This document shows, piece after piece, positions 3,266-58,381 of a stretch of DNA of 64,000 bases. A program made the position numbers and the translations under genes. The stretch is from Escherichia phage ES12. The notes beneath the pieces were generated by a model. It was not told the origin of the DNA, did no database searches, and worked only from the letters and a program-made list of their open reading frames with translations. The DNA is taken from the sequence record MN508614.1; one strand, given 5' to 3'. Within the stretch, counting starts at the first letter, position 1. Each line of letters opens with the position of its first letter.

Positions 3266-3331
3266 TTAAACTTTCCTTTTATGTCTGAATCACTGGTATT
3301 CATATAATAAATCATAATTTCTCTTAAAACA

Positions 3332-3349
3332 AAAGGGCCGAAGCCCTTA
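3332..3349 (-). terminator. intrinsic terminator hairpin gggc-cgaa-gccc (UUCG tetraloop in RNA)
   Basis: aaaagggccgaagcccttatttt; A-run before and T-run after on plus strand, so possibly bidirectional. Confidence 0.55.
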
Positions 3350-3351
3350 TT

Positions 3352-3546
3352 TTATTTGAATTGTGCAATTCTTTTCTCTAGACATTCAGCATAAGATTTC
3401 ATTGAGATGAACTGTGAAAGTAGCAGTTCTTGCTCAACTGCACTAACTGTTAGAAACTTTGCGCTTTCTAAAAATTTGCTCAGTGCATTAATTTTGAGCA
3501 TTAATTGATCGTATTCTTCTTTTACTCGTGCTTGATAACCTAACAT
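3352..3546 (-). CDS. hypothetical protein (64 aa)
   Basis: ORF track; lies between rIIB and denB. Confidence 0.45.
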   Translation of the reverse strand: MLGYQARVKEEYDQLMLKINALSKFLESAKFLTVSAVEQELLLSQFISMKSYAECLEKRIAQFK

Positions 3547-3560
3547 AATTTTCCTTAGTT

Positions 3561-3576
3561 AAGGGCCGAAGCCCTT
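3561..3576 (-). terminator. hairpin aagggccgaagccctt overlapping rIIB stop codon
   Basis: GC stem with cgaa loop directly after rIIB. Confidence 0.5.
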
Positions 3577-4513
3577 ATTTAAATTGTTCAGTAACGTCTT
3601 CAACTACTTCGTATTGGCAGGTACGCATTTTAGCATCGTTGTAATCAATCGGAATTGATACTACATCGCGAGGATGAACCTTAACTTTTACAACTCGGCT
3701 GGTTGAACTGCCAAAGTGACGAATATAAGATTTAGAACACACATGCAGACCACGAGAACAAGTTTGTGTATCATCGTCATTCACACGAGTACGTGGCATT
3801 TTAACTACTTTACCCGGACTGTTATCAAAGGTGTTTGAGTGACAGTCAAAGTAATTGCTGCGAACTACTTTCCAAGCATAGAAGTAGCCATCTTCTGTAA
3901 TTTCAATATCATTTGCTACCAAGAAATCAAAGAGTCGAGATACCGCTTTTTGGCTTGGGTTTTCCAGCAGATTTTCCAAGAACGGAAAATAAAATTCAAA
4001 GTTTTCACCTTTTTCCATCGAGTCGAGAATACGATCAACCAAACCAGATCGCAATTCAATATTTTGATAGAACAAGCTTCCACCTTCAATTCGAACATCA
4101 CCGGAAATATATTTTTCAACAGCGCGACGAACATTAATTTTTTGTGCCGCTTCTTCCAACTTATCCGCTACAAGCAGATTAAGAATTTCCTGGAAGTTTG
4201 AATGAGTATTAGGAGTTGCGTTATAAGTTACACCATCAACAGTAATTGAAATGAATTTTTTAGATGCATTCCAAATAATGTCAGATTTAGCAACTGGAGC
4301 AATAACTGCATCGCTATTAACTTTAACTGTAATATCACCACTAATAGTAACTTTAGGGCGTTTAGCTTCTTCAGCATTTTTCAAAACACGACGGATTGTG
4401 TCAACCGATACATCCTTCCAATAAGCTAATTCCTGCTGAGTGTAATTACCACTTGAATACAGTTTAACAATTTCAGCTTGTTCGTTTTTGGTCAGGCATT
4501 TAATATTGTACAT
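3575..4513 (-). CDS. rIIB: rIIB membrane-associated protein (312 aa)
   Basis: 312 aa exactly as T4 rIIB; directly downstream of rIIA. Confidence 0.85.
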   Translation of the reverse strand: MYNIKCLTKNEQAEIVKLYSSGNYTQQELAYWKDVSVDTIRRVLKNAEEAKRPKVTISGDITVKVNSDAVIAPVAKSDIIWNASKKFISITVDGVTYNATPNTHSNFQEILNLLVADKLEEAAQKINVRRAVEKYISGDVRIEGGSLFYQNIELRSGLVDRILDSMEKGENFEFYFPFLENLLENPSQKAVSRLFDFLVANDIEITEDGYFYAWKVVRSNYFDCHSNTFDNSPGKVVKMPRTRVNDDDTQTCSRGLHVCSKSYIRHFGSSTSRVVKVKVHPRDVVSIPIDYNDAKMRTCQYEVVEDVTEQFK

Positions 4514-4524
4514 AATTTTCCTTA

Positions 4525-6702
4525 TTAGGCCGCAAGGGCCTTCATAGTTTTAGCGATTTGAGAAACTTCATCATCACTTAAAGAGTTGCGATATCCGATG
4601 AAGTCGGAAACAATACGGAATTTCTTGGTAAACTCAGCAACCATTTTATCACTGTTTTTTGAAGCATTATGTGATAATTCATCAAAAAGATTAGTTACTG
4701 TCCAGATGTCATGACCGATGGTATCTTTTCCACCATTAAAATATACACCCTGTAATGAACTAACCATATTAGCGAGTCGTGTATATTCTTCAGAAACTTC
4801 ATCTACACTGAAGTACTTCATCATAAAATCTAACTCAGGATACTTGATAATTTTATCAATATATCGTTTAGCTGAACTTGAATAACCTACATACTTATCA
4901 TAATCTACATCATCAAAAGCATCTACATATAAATCACGCAAAGCTTCAAAAATACATTGGCACTGACCGAGTTCTTTTACCTTTTTCTGTAAAAGCGGAC
5001 GAATAACATAAAATTCATTAATGCCAATAAGATTAGCCATACGAATCAAAATATTCATAGATGGATGACAAAGCGATGTAGTACCATCCATAGAGAAAAT
5101 ATCAGAACGATGCATATACGCTACATAACCAGTAATTTCATCTGCTTCTGATGTGAGCGTAAATAATTCCTCTTTTTCCCAGCGTCCGTCTTTAATTTCA
5201 AACTTAAATGCTGTAGCAGCTTTAGGACGAGGAGCTTTACTTTTAACTACCTTTGGAATATAGCTTTTAACTAAAGCTTCAATTTCTGACAAATAATGAA
5301 TGTTAACTTCATCACTTTCAAACATCGCCATAATATCAGGAAGTAAATCAATCTGTGATTCTACTTCTGGGTTAATAAACAGAAGGCGTTCGTTATGATG
5401 AATATTCAAAGTGTTATTAAATTCACTATCATCTAACGCACGTGCTAATCCACGGACAATATTAACACGATTTTTAATATTATCAATAACGATATTAATT
5501 TTTGTTGCATTAATACCAAACAGACGATAACTTGATGCAACGGCCGAAGTTTCATGGCTTTGTTTAATTCGTTTCAGTCGAGGGTCAAGATTTACTTCAT
5601 ACACAACCCCCGCGTTGCATAACTTACTATCAGGTTCAAACATGCTTTGCATCTTTTTATATGACAGATTTTTAGTCGTAAATTTGACTGAATTACTAAT
5701 CATATAATCTCGAGCAGAATACCCCATCTTCATCAATTCACGATATGTGTGACGAGGAGATGTAGATTCTTTAAATCGTTTTACATCTTCATTAAATGCT
5801 TTCTCACTGAGTTCTTTAACTCGTTCAATGATATTTTTACGAGTGCGATCATCTAGTGAAAGAGCCTCGCGAGATGGAGCAATATCAAGTGAACCCATTG
5901 GAAATTTAATGTAATTCACTTCATTGCGAATGCTTAGCCAGTTACGGTCTCTAATAACACCATCGATAGGATAAACAATACCGCCATAGATAGCATATAA
6001 TCCACCACGATCTGGCCAGTATCTTTCTGGATTTACACCGTAATAGTCATCAAAATCCGGAAAATAATCAATTTCGCGGTCAAGACCATTAATGATAGCC
6101 AAATCTTTGAATGGTCGCATGATATAAGAAACTTCATAAGCAAAGTTTCTAAAGTCTTTTTCTTCAACTGGAACTACGATTTCAATACCAGTTTTATCAT
6201 TTGGACCCATTTCTTTTACGAATGTAGGTTTAATCTGTGGACCATCACCATCCATGTAAGCTACATAACCACGAATTTCACCTTTATGATACGAAGTAAT
6301 ACTAAACGTATCAGTATAACTAAACGGAGATTTAGAACCTAAACCAAATCCGCCAATGAAATCGTTAGATTCAGCCTTAGATGAACTGAAGTATGAATTA
6401 TACAGACCAGGAGAATTATCATCACCTTGAATATCAAAATCACTCATACCCGGACCAAAATCTCGACAAACAAATCGTGGGTCTAAACGTCCTGGAACTT
6501 GTATGATAAATTTTTCAGGATTTCCATTGAGAGCATGGGCATCAATCATGTTAGTAATCAATTCACGGACTACTGCGCGAATCTTGTTTGTATACAAATC
6601 AGATGATAGAATTTTAAATACTTTAGGAGATGCTGTGATGCTAAATGCTTTTGATTTAGAACCATTGCCAAGAATTGTTTCTTTTTCAGTGGTGATAATC
6701 AT
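4525..6702 (-). CDS. rIIA: rIIA protein (725 aa)
   Basis: 725 aa as T4 rIIA; between gene 39 and rIIB. Confidence 0.9.
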
Positions 6703-6712
6703 AATTTCCTCA

Positions 6713-6916
6713 TTAATTCATATTACGTTTAATAACTTCGGCAACTTCTAGTAGTTCATCTTTAGTTGCGGTGTCGGATTGAATTTTATCTCTAATATCC
6801 TTAAAGCGGTTTTTAAATTCTTCGGCTTCTCCCATATCGAAAAAGCGTTGAATGATTCTATATTCTCGATGAACTGCTTTATCAAAAAGTTCTAAATTTA
6901 CTTTATATGATTTCAT
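6713..6916 (-). CDS. hypothetical protein, rIIA.1 position (67 aa)
   Basis: ORF track; GAGGA RBS; own early promoter upstream. Confidence 0.5.
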
Positions 6917-6941
6917 TTCAATATCCTCATTTGCCCAATTA

Positions 6942-13500: not shown

Positions 13501-14820
13501 TCACACATAAAACACATCATAACGACCACGAGTAACACCAACATAAAGAAGCTGCTGAGCTAGTTCAGCGTCTGCATAATGAATACAAGGCGTATAAATG
13601 AAAGCACGGTCTACAGACATACCTTGAGCTTTATGGAATGTTGATGCAGGAAGTGCTTTCACTTTACTAAACTGTGATTTAGCATCCCAAAAATCACTCC
13701 ATGGAGCTTTTCCGCCTTTGTTCCAATTTTTATAAGTTTCTGCCGTTTTACCTAAAAATAGGTTAAACTTATATAACTCTTCATCAGATGAAATTATTTT
13801 AATCTTTTCACGATAATATTCATCATCGCCGTAAGTTTCTACTGTTAAATCCCAATGACGAATTAAGTATTCTCCAGGAACACCACGAGCTTTAACAAAC
13901 GTCGATGTATACTCTGCTTCTATAATACGAACTAATTGTCCGTTATTAAAAATAATTTCTGACACAGGCTTTCCATCAATTTTATATGTTTTAATTAATG
14001 GTTCCTGCATTACAATAATTTCACCGACAATAAAATCTTTATCAGTTTCAAAAATCTTTTTACGAATAATGCTATTTAACTTGTCAACAGATTTATTTGT
14101 AAATGCCATTACGCGATTTTCAAACAAATCGTCTAGTGATTTTACGATTGAAAAATAATTTACCATAAAATCGCGTAAAGCGGTATCACCAGTAAATCCA
14201 CGTACTCCATGGCCGTCAACAACTTTATCATAAATCCACTTACCGTTGCGAACATCAGTAGCTACATCAATAATAGGAGCATTACTGCGTTTAACTTCAG
14301 TGAGTTCACACTGATAAAAATCTTTATGTGTAAAGAATGGACTGATATAAGCAGTATTTTCTCCTGGGTCAACAGGTCTAATTTGCTTATTATCACCTAT
14401 TCCAATTATAGTACACCACGGCGGGATAGTTGAAAGCAGAATTTTAAATAGCTTTCTATCATACATTGACACTTCATCGCAGATTAATACTCTGCATTTA
14501 GCTAAATCCGGTACTTCCTTCTGCTCAAAGAGGACATTTTCTTCATATGTTACTGGGTTAATTTTAAGAATGCTATGAATAGTACTTGCTTCTTTCCCTG
14601 ATAGTTTTGAAAGAATCTTTTTAGCTGCATGAGTAGGAGCTGCTAAAATAATACCAGTTTCACCCGTAGATATTAAAGCTTCAATGATGAACTTAGTAAG
14701 AGTAGTCTTACCGGTACCAGCAGGTCCATTAATAGTTACATGATGTTTCTTTTCTTTAATAGCCCTCATAACGATGTTAAAGGCATTTTTCTGGCCTTCT
14801 GTCAAATCATCAAATGTCAT
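13501..14820 (-). CDS. dda: Dda DNA helicase (439 aa, SF1B)
   Basis: Walker A GPAGTGKTT, Walker B CDEVSM; 439 aa as T4 Dda. Confidence 0.9.
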   Translation of the reverse strand: MTFDDLTEGQKNAFNIVMRAIKEKKHHVTINGPAGTGKTTLTKFIIEALISTGETGIILAAPTHAAKKILSKLSGKEASTIHSILKINPVTYEENVLFEQKEVPDLAKCRVLICDEVSMYDRKLFKILLSTIPPWCTIIGIGDNKQIRPVDPGENTAYISPFFTHKDFYQCELTEVKRSNAPIIDVATDVRNGKWIYDKVVDGHGVRGFTGDTALRDFMVNYFSIVKSLDDLFENRVMAFTNKSVDKLNSIIRKKIFETDKDFIVGEIIVMQEPLIKTYKIDGKPVSEIIFNNGQLVRIIEAEYTSTFVKARGVPGEYLIRHWDLTVETYGDDEYYREKIKIISSDEELYKFNLFLGKTAETYKNWNKGGKAPWSDFWDAKSQFSKVKALPASTFHKAQGMSVDRAFIYTPCIHYADAELAQQLLYVGVTRGRYDVFYV

Positions 14821-15128
14821 CGGAAAGTCCCTGCAATTGGAATACTAACAATACGCCCAGTATCTAGAATTCGTTGATATAATCTTTGTGTATCTACATC
14901 AGGCTTAACATGTTTAACTTCTATTTTATTAAACCAAAATTTACGTGGAGTCTCAACTAATCTTGGAATTCCTTTACCTAAAGCTAGTCGATACTGCTCT
15001 TTAAGAGTGGTAAATACTTTATCAGCAATCTTCCATTCAAAAAATACAGCAGGACGATGTTCATCAAGCGGAACTGGCGCCGTAAATCCGTCTTTGTCTC
15101 GGTAAACTATCGCATATACATAAACCAT
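14817..15128 (-). CDS. hypothetical protein (103 aa)
   Basis: ORF track; overlaps dda start. Confidence 0.5.
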   Translation of the reverse strand: MVYVYAIVYRDKDGFTAPVPLDEHRPAVFFEWKIADKVFTTLKEQYRLALGKGIPRLVETPRKFWFNKIEVKHVKPDVDTQRLYQRILDTGRIVSIPIAGTFR

Positions 15129-15129
15129 A

Positions 15130-15876
15130 TTATCCTCGGATAAGTTTAAAAATTGAACAATTTAGCGGGTATCCTCTTTTCAGTTTAAGTTTATCAATAA
15201 AAGACAAATTTTGATACCGCTCTACACCTTGAATAATTTTATCACACATATCATATTGCATTTCTGCTTCTGACAGCTTTTTCACAATTTTCCAATCCGA
15301 GCCTTTAAGAAGAACGTTCAATTTAACAACTTCAGCGCCTTCTGCTATGCGAGAACCATCAATACGTGCTTTAAGTGCTATAATCCTTAGCTTAATGTCA
15401 GAGGTCTGTTTTGATTTAGAAAGCTGAGAAATGTGTTCAATTCGGTTTTCACGTTTTTTCTGTATAGCTTTAATTTGATTATAAGTCTTTTTGATTTTAG
15501 CCCATTTCTTTTCATCTAAATTTAGTTTATGAACTTTTTTCGCAGATGAACGACCAATTCGCAAAGCAAATAAATCACGCTTTTCAATCAACTCTTCTAA
15601 AGTATAATCAGAACGAAATGTATTATACTTTTTCTTTACTGCAATAACATTCCCTTTAATGTATCCAACGTTATTATCAAAACGTTCTAATGATAATTTC
15701 TCTCCTTCAATACGATTATCAAAAGGTTCTCCCGAGTAAGCACAAACTTTTTGATCTAAAATGTTCTTAATGTAATTGAAGTCTAAGTTAAAATCTTTAG
15801 AACGTCTTTTTGCAGATGCCTGAGTATGCTCTAGACGACGTTTAATTTTACGAATTTGGTTATTAGACAGCTTCAT
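15130..15876 (-). CDS. Srd-position protein (248 aa)
   Basis: Size and position match T4 srd; basic N-terminus; no motif verified. Confidence 0.45.
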   Translation of the reverse strand: MKLSNNQIRKIKRRLEHTQASAKRRSKDFNLDFNYIKNILDQKVCAYSGEPFDNRIEGEKLSLERFDNNVGYIKGNVIAVKKKYNTFRSDYTLEELIEKRDLFALRIGRSSAKKVHKLNLDEKKWAKIKKTYNQIKAIQKKRENRIEHISQLSKSKQTSDIKLRIIALKARIDGSRIAEGAEVVKLNVLLKGSDWKIVKKLSEAEMQYDMCDKIIQGVERYQNLSFIDKLKLKRGYPLNCSIFKLIRG

Positions 15877-54561: not shown

Positions 54562-55530
54562 TTATTTCAGAAGAGTAACCTCAGCGATTTCTTCCCAACC
54601 GTTTTTGTCGGTCATAATAAAGTCAGCAAGATAAAGTGCAGTACGCAGTGAAACATTGCGTAAACGATTAACATTGACTTTCATCCATGATAATGCTTTA
54701 TAAGTTTCTTCATCAGAAAGACCGCGTTTTTGCATCATGTCAGTTGAAAGAATAACATCTTCAACCCTGACCATAATTTCTTCATTAGTGTGAACACCCA
54801 AATCTAAATAAACTGAGCGGGACACTAATGCTTGTAAATGTGGAGCAAGTTTAGTACCACGGTCTAATTCGCGGTCAATGTCAACGTTTGTGATAAAAAC
54901 AATCGTTCCTTTAAATTCAAACTCACGCTCAATGCCTTTTTCTTCTAAGTAAGAAGATGCAGTGCTCCAGCAGACTTTACGGGTCTCTCCAGTGTCCAGA
55001 GCAGCTTTCAGAAGATTAAGAATGTCCATATCAGAGAAAACATCCACATCATCAATCAAAAGGACAGAATTCTCTTCACGATTATTCCAAAGCTGCTCAT
55101 AAAGACCAATACCAGAGATTTTACCATTAATGCTTTTATATTCAATGTATCCAATATCATTTGCTTTATTTAAAGCTTTATCTAAAGAATACGTTTTACC
55201 AATACCTGCTGCGCCAGAGATAATTAATGAACGAATATTTCCGTTAATAATACCATTCGTCATCATTCCCATAACATTAAATCTTTTATTAATGCGGGTT
55301 TTCATATCTTCATACGATTCTTTAACTTCTTCAACTTTTACACCATCATATGAAATGTCTGATTTGTAAACCCAAACACCGCGACGCTTACCGTCAATTT
55401 CAACAAAAACTTTACCATCTCCTTGTGCATCTACCGGAGCATTATCTGGGAACCATTCACCTAAGAGCTCAAAAGTTCCAGAGATTTCTTTACCGAAGTA
55501 GATACCCTTATTGATAGTTACAGTTTTCAT
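54562..55530 (-). CDS. P-loop NTPase / AAA-like ATPase (322 aa)
   Basis: Walker A GAAGIGKT, Walker B VLLIDDVD; ORF 54562..55650 trimmed to MKTVTINKG after promoter leader. Confidence 0.6.
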   Translation of the reverse strand: MKTVTINKGIYFGKEISGTFELLGEWFPDNAPVDAQGDGKVFVEIDGKRRGVWVYKSDISYDGVKVEEVKESYEDMKTRINKRFNVMGMMTNGIINGNIRSLIISGAAGIGKTYSLDKALNKANDIGYIEYKSINGKISGIGLYEQLWNNREENSVLLIDDVDVFSDMDILNLLKAALDTGETRKVCWSTASSYLEEKGIEREFEFKGTIVFITNVDIDRELDRGTKLAPHLQALVSRSVYLDLGVHTNEEIMVRVEDVILSTDMMQKRGLSDEETYKALSWMKVNVNRLRNVSLRTALYLADFIMTDKNGWEEIAEVTLLK

Positions 55531-55564
55531 TTTATTCTCCAAATCCGTATCAGTTGATAGTTGT

Positions 55565-55594
55565 ATAGTACCACAGTATGCTTTGGTTGTAAAC
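55565..55594 (-). promoter_or_regulatory. T4-type early promoter (GTTTACA, TACTAT) with conserved leader
   Basis: atagta 55565-55570, gtaaac 55589-55594. Confidence 0.6.
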
Positions 55595-55626
55595 CGTTTT
55601 GTGAAAAAAATTTTTGAAATAAAAAA

Positions 55627-55644
55627 GGGAGCCCGAAGGCTCCC
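55627..55644 (-). terminator. intrinsic terminator (gggagcc-cgaa-ggctccc)
   Basis: 7-bp GC stem, UUCG-type loop, A6 run precedes on plus strand. Confidence 0.65.
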
Positions 55645-55646
55645 TA

Positions 55647-56660
55647 TCATTTATAATAACTTCGGTGGTTTTCAAGATAAACCCTCTCAAGGAAGTCATC
55701 CCAGAAACCCATGTCTACTTTTTGCTGCATACCGTTCTTAGAAGCTTCAATGGATGCTGCTTCTACTTGATCGACCACATCTTCCAAAAACTCTTGAACA
55801 GTTTTAAATGGATGTTTACCCAACTTCACGTCGAGAATAAATGGAGCGTCTTGAAGTGGATAGACTAAGTCACCAGTTTTGTAAATTTCCAATAGTTGGA
55901 GTCCACCACGGCAAGCATGACTCAGAGCTTTCCAGTCAATGCCCTCATTCGCTTCAGCCTTACGAGCACGTTCGCCGTATTCAGCATCAAGTTTATTCAA
56001 AGATTGCTTAAGCTCAATAAGAGAAAGTGTTGTTTGATATTTACGACCCAACACAGTGTAGAACGTTTGTGGGCCTGTTTTCTCATGATTATGGAATACC
56101 CATTCACAGAATTCGTTCTCTGGAAGACGATGCTTAATATCTTCAACTTTAGTTCGACGCTGCTTAATGGAACCGTCTTCTTGGTAATCAACCCATTGCT
56201 CAGGGATTTGATTAACTACTTTCAATACATCACGTAATGCGGCCAAACGAGAACCCTTAACACCGTATTTAGAAGCTTGCTTGCGAACATATCCTAAATA
56301 GGATTTCATGTTAGTCGTATAAAAACGAGAACGATTATCTTGGATAAACTTCCATACATCAGGCAAATCAGATTTAACCACTAGTTCAGGCGGAGTGTGA
56401 AGCATATCCAATGCTACAGTTTCACCATCTGCCGCTAATTTAAAGAAATACTTAAGACTGTATAGTTCATGGTCAATATCATCTTTAGTGTTTTTAGATG
56501 ATGTGTTGTTAGTGTTTTTGCTCATATGCTCTTTAACATTTCCGATAAGAATATCGCGAGCAGGAGGAACAAAAATTTCTTTAAAATCTACATCAGATTC
56601 TGGAGTAGAAGTTCCATAAAGATGACTACCAAAATAGCTTTTCATTACTGTTTTCATCAT
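55647..56660 (-). CDS. nucleotidyltransferase-fold protein (337 aa)
   Basis: N-terminal GSHLYGTSTPESDVDF (GS-x9-SDhD Pol-beta-type NTase motif); ATG overlaps stop of upstream membrane protein. Confidence 0.55.
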   Translation of the reverse strand: MMKTVMKSYFGSHLYGTSTPESDVDFKEIFVPPARDILIGNVKEHMSKNTNNTSSKNTKDDIDHELYSLKYFFKLAADGETVALDMLHTPPELVVKSDLPDVWKFIQDNRSRFYTTNMKSYLGYVRKQASKYGVKGSRLAALRDVLKVVNQIPEQWVDYQEDGSIKQRRTKVEDIKHRLPENEFCEWVFHNHEKTGPQTFYTVLGRKYQTTLSLIELKQSLNKLDAEYGERARKAEANEGIDWKALSHACRGGLQLLEIYKTGDLVYPLQDAPFILDVKLGKHPFKTVQEFLEDVVDQVEAASIEASKNGMQQKVDMGFWDDFLERVYLENHRSYYK

Positions 56661-57118
56661 TCAGCCTTATATTCAATAACAGGACATACTTTAGCTTTAC
56701 GAGCTTTTAAAAATTCAACGATAACCGATTTCTTTGGTTGAATAGGAGGTAAACCTTTATACGCCCTATCAATATTTTCTACGTGTAAAGCATAATCCTT
56801 TTTCCATTTATAATCTTTATATTTTTCACGCAAATGTGCAGGAATAACAAATGAACCGATAATAAGTAAAACAACCAAAAGTGCAAGTATAAATGCTGAT
56901 GGAATAAGAGTCCATAAACTACCAAAAATAAGCCATTTCTGTATGATTTCTGCACAGATAATAGTTAGACCTGCGAGTATAGTACATCCGAAAAAAGAAA
57001 CGAAAAATGTAGGGATAACAATAGACCAAAAGTATGCACACAGTGTCTTAGGTCGTTTCCATTCGTCGTTAAACAGTTTGAATAATTTATAGTGCCAAGA
57101 GTTTTCATTAATAATCAT
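56657..57118 (-). CDS. multi-pass membrane protein (153 aa)
   Basis: Three hydrophobic segments; translationally coupled to NTase. Confidence 0.5.
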   Translation of the reverse strand: MIINENSWHYKLFKLFNDEWKRPKTLCAYFWSIVIPTFFVSFFGCTILAGLTIICAEIIQKWLIFGSLWTLIPSAFILALLVVLLIIGSFVIPAHLREKYKDYKWKKDYALHVENIDRAYKGLPPIQPKKSVIVEFLKARKAKVCPVIEYKAE

Positions 57119-57120
57119 AA

Positions 57121-57642
57121 TTATCCTTTCATTGAAGGTGTAACAGTTGTTAAATACTTAATCATAGCTTCAGCTTCTGATTTTGATAATGAAATTTCTT
57201 CATTGTTTTGACGAATAGAAATAAAATCCGGATGACGGTCACCACCAGCTTTTAAAACACACATATAAGTATCAGTTTCATCTTCAATATCTGAAATGAT
57301 TGAAGCAGTTCCACATGAATGTGGTTTTTGATAAATCAATACAGCTTTTCTTCCACCGTTTGACTGTTCATAAACTTTTAACACATCAAACAAATCGCTT
57401 CTTTTATCAATAGCTAAGATGTTGTTTTCATCTTCAATATTAAATCCTTCGGATACTTCATAAAGTGTCACCCATAAATCACCAATATCAATAACAGCGT
57501 TCACTTTTCCATGACTTTCAAGAGCATTACAAATTTTCTTAATTTCATCATAACTCATTTTAATAATATCATCTCCTTGAATAAGGAAGATGTCATTTTT
57601 AAATTCAACACGAATTAAACCACTTCCACTTGAAATAAACAT
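57121..57642 (-). CDS. hypothetical protein (173 aa), paralog of 57649..58182
   Basis: Shared C-terminus SKSEAEAMIKYLTTVTPSM vs TKDEAIALKTYLDSVIPTM. Confidence 0.5.
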   Translation of the reverse strand: MFISSGSGLIRVEFKNDIFLIQGDDIIKMSYDEIKKICNALESHGKVNAVIDIGDLWVTLYEVSEGFNIEDENNILAIDKRSDLFDVLKVYEQSNGGRKAVLIYQKPHSCGTASIISDIEDETDTYMCVLKAGGDRHPDFISIRQNNEEISLSKSEAEAMIKYLTTVTPSMKG

Positions 57643-57648
57643 ATTTCC

Positions 57649-58182
57649 TCACTTTGAAATCATAGTTGGAATGACAGAATCGAGATAAGTCTTTAGCGCA
57701 ATAGCTTCGTCTTTGGTAAATGTGACAATATACGATCGAAAATCATCAATTTGACGAATAGTTAAGACATCACCATCTTCATAGCATTTTGATACGTTTA
57801 AAACAGTTTCATCATTCTGATTGCAAGCGTTAGTAATAATAGCATTGCAATTTTTGAGCCATTTTAAACTATGTTTTCTTTCATTAGAATAATAAAAATA
57901 TTTAATCTTATCTATAAAACTATCCCAATGGATAACTGATAAACACATTGACTCACTTTTAATATTAAATCCTGGGCATGAAGAATAAAAATGAATTTTG
58001 TGCTCATCATTGATGCTTACTATTTTATCAGTATAAGGATATTCAATTTGGGTTAAATGAATGATTTCACTAGGCGTAAAATATAGCATATCGTCTTCTT
58101 GTGTCAAACGATACATATTATTTACTTTTTCTATAGCTAATTCACCAAAAAGCGGACTAACTTCTAATACTAATCGTTTCAT
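57649..58182 (-). CDS. hypothetical protein (177 aa from ATG MKRLVLEV)
   Basis: ORF 57649..58206 trimmed (track start is GTG). Confidence 0.5.
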   Translation of the reverse strand: MKRLVLEVSPLFGELAIEKVNNMYRLTQEDDMLYFTPSEIIHLTQIEYPYTDKIVSINDEHKIHFYSSCPGFNIKSESMCLSVIHWDSFIDKIKYFYYSNERKHSLKWLKNCNAIITNACNQNDETVLNVSKCYEDGDVLTIRQIDDFRSYIVTFTKDEAIALKTYLDSVIPTMISK

Positions 58183-58351
58183 ATTGATTCTCTTCGACTC
58201 ACCCACAATTACATACTCCTTTGAATAATATCAATAATGTTGTTCACCAGATTATAAGTAAACATTGGATAATTATATTGAATCATCACATACACAACAA
58301 ACAAAACTTTCATTATCTTCTCCTTGGCAGTTGACAAGATTACTATACCAT

Positions 58352-58381
58352 AACCTTGCCAACTTGTAAACCGTTAAATGA
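58352..58381 (-). promoter_or_regulatory. T4-type early promoter (GTTTACA, TATAGT)
   Basis: actata 58352-58357, gtaaac 58376-58381. Confidence 0.5.

Follow-up and report, generated by a model that had tools for sequence, protein, structure and literature searches.

Results

Organisation of the nrdC.11 unit in phage ES12

We analysed a stretch of 64,000 nucleotides (nt) from Escherichia phage ES12 (sequence record MN508614.1), here called the window, and in particular a gene at 55647..56660 on its minus strand that encodes a protein of 337 amino acids (aa). With near certainty this protein is the counterpart of T4 NrdC.11 and a member of the RlaP family of nucleotidyltransferases (NTases), of which it is a predicted long form with a Pol-beta type fold. 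The homologs of this long form in cellular genomes lie among RNA repair genes, and a role in phage tRNA repair is weighed below against the alternatives.

All genes between 53.5 and 60.7 kilobases (kb) of the window are on the minus strand. The unit that contains nrdC.11 is headed by an early-type sigma-70 promoter at 58342..58370 (minus), with GTTTACA, a 17-nt spacer and a TG-extended TATAGT; read from 58370 to 58342 it agrees with the consensus at 10 of 12 positions and carries the upstream TG, and it is no more than a consensus match. Between the promoter and the first of two paralogous genes lies an open reading frame (ORF) of 34 aa (58209..58313, minus), which is the ortholog of MobD.2 and has the Shine-Dalgarno sequence AAGGAG upstream. 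Paralog A (57649..58182, minus; phrog_1502) has 177 aa when read from its ATG and 185 aa if an upstream GTG is used, and was placed in the y05I/MobD.1 family by Pfam and as the ortholog of T4 MobD.1. Paralog B (57121..57642, minus; 173 aa) was placed in the same family by Pfam and is without a T4 counterpart. The next gene encodes a membrane protein of 153 aa (56657..57118, minus; phrog_944/phrog_22816), described here from its hydropathy and from an alignment of its homologs (A3). Its TGA (56659-56657) and the first ATG of the NTase gene (56660-56658) overlap in the sequence ATGA, as the original prediction had pointed out. A second ATG stands directly after the first, and the T4 annotation starts there, giving 336 aa. 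The N terminus of the 337-aa protein reads MMKTVMKSYFGSHLYGTSTPESDVDF.

The unit is closed by an intrinsic terminator at 55626..55645 (minus), with a stem of 8 base pairs, 6 of them GC, a UUCG loop and a T-run. The hairpin begins one base past the nrdC.11 stop codon and reads AGGGAGCC-TTCG-GGCTCCCT, followed by the T-run. Terminator-like sites, which are likewise consensus matches only, were more frequent than in shuffled sequences (9 vs 3.0), and promoter-like sites were not enriched over shuffles (30 vs 27.5). The early promoter and the terminator that the original prediction had assigned to the unit were both present, as consensus matches, at or within a few bases of where it had placed them. 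Its description of the unit was accurate for the features that it named and had passed over the 34-aa MobD.2 ortholog.

The best sigma-70 match of the region lies at 58080-58107 (minus), inside the coding sequence of paralog A; this site (TTGACA-16-TATATT with TG, 11 of 12 positions) may have arisen by chance or may act as an early promoter within the gene. A scan of the unit for MotA-box middle promoters gave imperfect candidates only, for example at 56794. A second GTTTACA promoter, at 55593-55565, is located past the terminator and serves nrdC.10.

Correspondence with T4

The 2.8-kb region has 100% DNA identity to Escherichia phage ES26, a Tequatrovirus like ES12, and about 500 records of T-even-like phages match it at 90-99% identity. 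The 337-aa protein is 98.2% identical over 337 aa to T4 NrdC.11 (NP_049709), the product of which is given as 'nucleotidyltransferase'. The 177-aa ORF is 86% identical to T4 MobD.1, and by tblastn the 34-aa ORF is 91% identical to T4 MobD.2 and 62% and 54% identical to the syntenic ORFs of Mosigvirus and Karamvirus, respectively. Downstream of nrdC.11, the next gene is 99% identical to that for T4 NrdC.10, an AAA-type ATPase. The orthologs of nrdC.10, nrdC.9, nrdC.8, mobD.1 and mobD.2 are arranged around nrdC.11 in the same order as in T4. In both phages nrdC.11 occupies the slot between nrdC.10 and a mobD.1-family gene, in the same orientation, and it has the same terminator-plus-promoter boundary facing nrdC.10.

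The upstream neighbour is different. In T4 it is mobD, whereas in ES12 it is the 153-aa membrane protein gene together with a second MobD.1/y05I paralog, and neither the membrane protein nor the 173-aa paralog B had a match in the T4 region. T4 mobD (56429-57208 of the T4 record; 14430-15209 in our T4 segment, L001) fills the interval that corresponds to 56657-57642 of the window. As this is exactly where the membrane gene and paralog B lie in ES12, the arrangement suggests that, in the lineage of T4, mobD inserted in place of about 1 kb of resident genes. MobD is a free-standing HNH homing endonuclease, and its insertion site has been given as 'nrdC.11/mobD.1' (PMC2988022). In phage T2 part of the membrane-protein gene is still present (residues 28-153). 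The NTase needs neither the membrane protein nor paralog B, since nrdC.11 is kept in T4, which lacks both.

NrdC.11 is already a named and long-annotated T4 ORF in a curated family. The original prediction had not recognised it as such, although its annotation as a nucleotidyltransferase dates from 2006 or earlier: in that year Nolan et al. reported a match of nrdC.11 orthologs to the nucleotidyltransferase COG3541 (PMC1524935). The prediction was correct in that it did not regard the gene as part of core replication: a viable genome-reduced T4 lacks the block from nrdC.11 to mobD.3 (PMC9825161), and NrdC.11 is thus accessory on laboratory hosts. In GenBank, NrdC.11 orthologs are often labelled 'thioredoxin', apparently from the locus name nrdC, and one is labelled 'putative HNH homing endonuclease'. 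Similarly, the records call MobD.4-like ORFs 'molybdopterin-guanine dinucleotide biosynthesis protein MobD' and give a further small ORF the name 'helicase loader'. Such labels look like name-propagation errors.

NrdC.11 as a long form of RlaP

NrdC.11 matched the Pfam family PF10127 (RlaP) with 43.8 bits (gathering cutoff 23, E 3.3e-11), over residues 7-135 only, which correspond to profile positions 23-142 of 249, and it matched phrog_388 ('nucleotidyltransferase') end to end (E 7e-137). A precomputed PF10127 match was present in all 120 close homologs among the matches listed. An exhaustive HMMER search gave 3421 cluster representatives with E<=1e-3, 830 of them with E<=1e-30, mostly with full-length alignments. 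T4 NrdC.11 itself was put in cluster 5 of a sequence similarity network (SSN) of PF10127 by a preprint of December 2025 (PMC12776372).

In an alignment of 112 NrdC.11 homologs of 35-55% identity (A1), G11, S12, Y132, K244, H248, R251, P268 and K279 were invariant, and S22, D23, D25, D61, D63, D85 and K131 were conserved in at least 90% of the sequences. When the long NrdC.11-type profile was compared by hhalign with one built from canonical short RlaPs (255-277 aa), the two matched over the N-terminal 120 or so columns (94.7% probability, E 6e-8), and D23, D25 and D63 aligned with the invariant D37, D39 and D73 of the short form. These three aspartates are the predicted catalytic residues. The third acidic residue, which the original prediction had left to be located, would be D63. 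Since only the N-terminal 120 or so columns align with short RlaP, NrdC.11 appears from its sequence to be a divergent long branch of the family.

The AlphaFold2 model of NrdC.11 had a predicted local distance difference test score (pLDDT) of 95.2 and a predicted template modelling score (pTM) of 0.85. Its core (residues 3-68) has the strands of a Pol-beta NTase at 3-10, 24-31, 45-49 and 62-68, with D63 at the head of the last of them. After the core come a long helix (119-151), a beta-rich insert (about 155-209) and a helical C-terminal domain (helices 214-336). The insert is missing from canonical short RlaP and also from the truncated NrdC.11 of phage Phi1, which has 232 aa (5004-5702 in segment L090). 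Together, the PF10127 and phrog_388 matches and the confident Pol-beta core of the model uphold the earlier reading of the GS and SDhD motifs as the signature of a Pol-beta NTase.

Matches to solved structures were weak but consistent, with kanamycin and aminoglycoside NTases, and with HEPN-domain chains for the C-terminal domain; matches among viral models were 'nucleotidyltransferases' from many phages and giant viruses. Sequence searches of the PDB with the protein, the A1 profile and the short-RlaP profile gave nothing useful. None of the five proteins of the unit had a match in NCBIfam or PADLOC.

A literature search found no experimental work on NrdC.11. The characterised members of the family are PfRlaP and PaRlaP from Pseudomonas, which add one or two nucleoside monophosphates (NMPs) or deoxynucleoside monophosphates to the 3'-OH of RNA, add none to DNA or protein, and prefer Mn2+ (PMC12776372). 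On a mimic of cleaved tRNA they favour the cut end, and they partly rescue the aminoacylation of a tRNA that lacks one anticodon-loop nucleotide (PMC12776372). In the crystal structure of PfRlaP the terminal helix packs back on the NTase domain and forms the substrate cleft (PMC12776372). NrdC.11 shares with these enzymes the Pol-beta core, the GS motif and the three aligned aspartates, and its model has a helical domain after the core, but it is about 80 residues longer and has the beta-rich insert.

Genomic context of the long form

Full-length relatives of NrdC.11 were sought in one genome per species, which gave 80 cellular loci, with 32-54% identity, from Desulfobacterales, Nitrospirota, Alphaproteobacteria, archaea and others. 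Neighbours within about 6 kb were confirmed with Pfam. The most frequent was a canonical short RlaP, which in 25 of the 80 loci was found immediately downstream on the same strand, at a distance of 3-290 nt. RtcB was a neighbour in 11 loci, a Pnkp ligase domain in eight, Hen1 in seven and Ro60/TROVE in five. At least one such RNA-repair neighbour was present in 35/80 loci, and in 24 of the 48 loci that had at least 3 kb of flank on each side. In several loci the genes form operons, as the gaps are only 0-14 nt. By inference, the frequency of these neighbours is far above chance, because each of the genes is at most single-copy among thousands of genes. On the basis of these 35 RNA-repair neighbourhoods, the long NrdC.11-type clade is itself tied to RNA repair.

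The tandem short RlaPs had 255-277 aa and scored 175-218 bits against PF10127 (loci L014, L024, L043, L047, L059, L060, L062, L077, L078, L086 and others). The long and short genes were often together inside RtcB, Pnkp/Hen1 or Ro60 operons, giving two paralogous NTases per repair module.

In T4-like phages only the long form was found, and phage short RlaPs occur in Mycobacterium phages, Pseudomonas jumbo phages and other phages that are not T4-like. Phage ES26 encodes both Pnkp (92% identity to T4) and Rnl1 (99%), about 75 kb from nrdC.11. The numbers of phage records with NrdC.11, Rnl1 and Pnkp were near-equal within each host genus, being 286, 287 and 286 for Klebsiella, 83 of each for Shigella, 69, 69 and 70 for Acinetobacter, and 56 of each for Enterobacter. 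These counts are consistent with an RNA-repair model and do not discriminate between models. Vibrio phage 11895-B1, which is not T4-like, has a homolog of 29% identity. In the region 3275-6921 of segment L091 it lies two genes downstream of an interrupted gene for a 'tRNA nucleotidyltransferase' (CCA-adding enzyme) and a few kb from tRNA genes, a context that resembles tRNA repair.

The membrane protein and the other neighbours

The 153-aa protein has a single continuous hydrophobic stretch, at about 27-94, and both of its termini have a net positive charge. Its AlphaFold2 model was of low confidence (pLDDT 64, pTM 0.26) and contained two long helices. For these reasons two transmembrane helices are more likely than the three that the original prediction had counted. 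The alignment A3 revealed a conserved N-terminal motif, (N)SWHY...PKxLCAYFW, with an invariant C27, and a basic C-terminal tail that ends in KAxKxKVCPxIE, with an invariant C145; both of these terminal motifs are described as cytoplasmic. The protein has no curated family in Pfam, NCBIfam or PADLOC and belongs only to PHROG families without a function. DUF4153 and DUF1189 were considered as its family and rejected, as their Pfam matches were below the cutoffs.

The membrane protein was found in 867 phage records, compared with 1517 for NrdC.11. The sampled genomes of Mosigvirus, Jiaodavirus, Karamvirus, Bragavirus and Lazarusvirus carry a homolog 0-2 kb upstream of nrdC.11, with both genes in the same orientation; that of Mosigvirus, of 50% identity, is adjacent to nrdC.11. 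The gene was missing beside nrdC.11 in T4, Pseudotevenvirus, Angelvirus and phage KPN8 (flanks of about 5 kb) and from all 80 cellular loci. The membrane gene is a lineage-specific neighbour and not an obligate partner of NrdC.11. The original prediction had described the NTase as operonic with the membrane protein and the two paralogs, and this holds in ES12; a conserved partnership with the membrane protein is not supported, as the NTase persists without the membrane gene in T4 and in the cellular loci. The context that is conserved for the NrdC.11 family consists instead of RtcB, Pnkp/Hen1, Ro60 and short RlaP.

Both paralogs matched the Pfam domains T4_y05I_N and T4_y05I_C, which are described as 'y05I-like putative transcription factor'. 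The E values were 3.6e-39 and 1.4e-20 for paralog A and 1e-34 and 1.6e-23 for paralog B. Across the two proteins, in no set order, the N domain scored 119.6 and 133.8 bits (cutoff 24.9) and the C domain 83.3 and 73.8 bits (cutoff 27). The paralogs are 27% identical to each other over the full length (E 1e-9). The paralogy that had been claimed was thus confirmed, but the similarity is not confined to a C-terminal block, because both proteins match both domains. In this they resemble T4 MobD.1, as each of them matches the two domains end to end, and they differ from it in copy number, with one copy in T4 and two diverged copies in ES12. In the literature we found no function for the MobD.1 family, mobD.1 being mentioned only as a flanking gene. 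Together with the membrane protein, the two paralogs are neighbours of nrdC.11 in a block of early genes that is variable.

On the other side of nrdC.11, the ORF called mechanically for nrdC.10 (54562-55650, minus; 362 aa) extends too far upstream, across the nrdC.10 promoter and the terminator of nrdC.11. Translation really starts from the ATG at 55530, after GGAG, which gives 322 aa. NrdC.10 is an AAA/STAND-like ATPase (phrog_1250) with weak matches to AAA_14 and nSTAND3. The gene is kept downstream of nrdC.11 in five genera. It was absent from the Bragavirus, Pseudotevenvirus, Angelvirus and KPN8 flanks and from the 80 cellular loci. NrdC.10 was considered as a real conserved partner and rejected, since it has its own promoter beyond the terminator and is absent from the cellular loci. 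Because T4-like genomes are broadly syntenic, closeness to nrdC.11 is weak evidence of a joint function, be it for the membrane gene, the y05I paralogs or NrdC.10.

Discussion

RNA repair was discovered in T4, where Pnkp and Rnl1 reverse the cleavage of tRNA-Lys by PrrC. Nucleases of the RloC type also excise the wobble nucleotide, and this lesion has been regarded as irreversible by phage repair (PMC2610378, PMC3458546). What NrdC.11 acts on, what it makes and which role it has in the phage we infer as follows. The protein probably restores nucleotides at RNA 3' ends within phage tRNA repair. Its substrate would be the 5' half of a tRNA that has been cut and shortened by a nucleotide by a host anticodon nuclease such as RloC. 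With D23, D25 and D63 and a divalent metal, which is Mn2+ in the characterised relatives, NrdC.11 would extend the broken RNA at its 3'-OH by one or two NMPs, and the phage Pnkp and Rnl1 would then heal and seal an anticodon loop of full length. It would thereby act as an accessory, early-expressed counter-defence enzyme of RNA repair. The same phage repair role has been proposed earlier (PMC7824862, PMC12776372). Of the accessory roles that the original prediction had offered, anti-defence is now the leading hypothesis; for nucleotide signalling there was no match in Pfam, in PADLOC or among the structural matches listed.

Several observations weigh against this role. The sequence and profile match to RlaP is confined to the N-terminal 120-130 residues, no homology was detected by hhalign past column 132 or so, and the C-terminal half and the beta insert are unlike canonical RlaP; the PDB chains that were searched include no RlaP structure for comparison. 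The enzymology of RlaP comes entirely from short Pseudomonas members of another SSN cluster (1a, compared with cluster 5 for NrdC.11). Even for these enzymes the efficiency of true repair is uncertain, because the addition of nucleotides occurs with little base selectivity (PMC12776372). In cells the long form is often additional to a short RlaP, and the co-occurrence of the two in 25/80 loci suggests that neither makes the other redundant and that the steps they catalyse may differ. Moreover, phage nrdC.11 is not adjacent to a ligase gene, being unlinked to pseT or rnlA in T4-like phages, and co-occurrence at the level of genomes is expected of any broadly conserved Straboviridae gene.

Some of these points also bear on a different role in RNA metabolism, in which NrdC.11 would act on RNA 3' ends outside anticodon-loop repair and on a substrate distinct from that of short RlaP, for example by restoring the 3'-CCA ends of tRNAs or by tailing host or phage RNAs so that their stability is altered. 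We regard this as rather unlikely. The tandems of long and short genes suggest a division of labour, neither the C-terminal half nor the insert is related in sequence to short RlaP, the Vibrio phage homolog lies near the gene of a CCA-adding enzyme, and in vitro RlaP labels full-length tRNAs and rRNAs as well as cleaved RNAs (PMC12776372). However, the cellular neighbours are those of ligase-based repair (RtcB, Pnkp/Hen1) and not genes of decay or CCA maturation, and the data favour no specific alternative RNA substrate.

A more speculative possibility, to which we give little credence, is that the long NrdC.11-type protein is a distinct, second RNA-repair NTase that in T-even phages works with the membrane protein in the manner of HalB and HalA. 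Its tandems with canonical RlaP in cells and its separate C-terminal half and insert would fit such a distinct enzyme. Such an action might be, for example, an oligonucleotide-making counter-measure to channel-based defences or a mimic of them. A related and very unlikely reading takes the membrane protein and NrdC.11 as a two-gene module like Hailong, or as its phage mimic or antidote, in which the NTase makes template-independent oligonucleotides that gate a membrane channel or replace its ligand. Hailong is an operon of the transmembrane protein HalA and the NTase HalB (PMC13434031), and in ES12 too a membrane gene overlaps the start codon of the NTase, with homologs shortly upstream of nrdC.11 in five genera. 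Yet the likeness to HalB (PDB 9dbh) is at the level of the fold only, with 16% identity and no detectable sequence relationship, and the A1 profile found no HalB in the PDB. HalB has 217 aa, compared with 337 aa for NrdC.11, and makes tyrosine-primed oligo-dA. HalA forms a channel of four subunits that has a cytoplasmic crown, whereas the ES12 membrane protein, compared with HalA by description only, is small and without a large cytoplasmic domain like the crown described (PMC13434031). The absence of the membrane gene from several phage lineages and from the cellular loci, the broad synteny of T4-like genomes and a cellular context that points to RNA repair also argue against such a module.

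It is more improbable still that NrdC.11 is an enzyme of the MNT/KNTase kind, transferring nucleotides to proteins or small molecules, for example AMPylating a host HEPN-type toxin and so neutralising it. The kanamycin NTase ANT(4') and its relatives (1kny, 6nlt) do combine an N-terminal Pol-beta NTase with a C-terminal helical, HEPN-like domain, but the similarities to them are generic to this combination, with low Z and template modelling scores; the RlaPs that have been characterised left E. coli proteins unmodified (PMC12776372), and the neighbourhoods of the homologs are RNA repair systems and not toxin-antitoxin pairs. Finally, a CD-NTase or cGAS-like synthase of a cyclic or linear nucleotide messenger, a link that the original prediction had drawn, shares with NrdC.11 only the GS...DxD motif of the Pol-beta superfamily, and this CBASS-like signalling was rejected as next to negligible, given that there was no CD-NTase, SMODS or OAS match in Pfam, no PADLOC match and no cGAS/DncV-like chain among the structural matches listed, and in view of the assignment to RlaP and the RNA-repair context.

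The repair of broken tRNA by NrdC.11 is no new concept, because this role has already been put forward in the two papers cited above for it. What is added here is the RNA-repair context specifically of the long NrdC.11-type clade and its frequent tandem with canonical RlaP, together with D63 as the predicted third catalytic residue and a membrane neighbour that is not obligate. If the proposed role is true, NrdC.11 would be the third phage repair enzyme next to Pnkp and Rnl1, completing the arms-race story of tRNA cleavage and repair, and the large RlaP family would gain a role in vivo.

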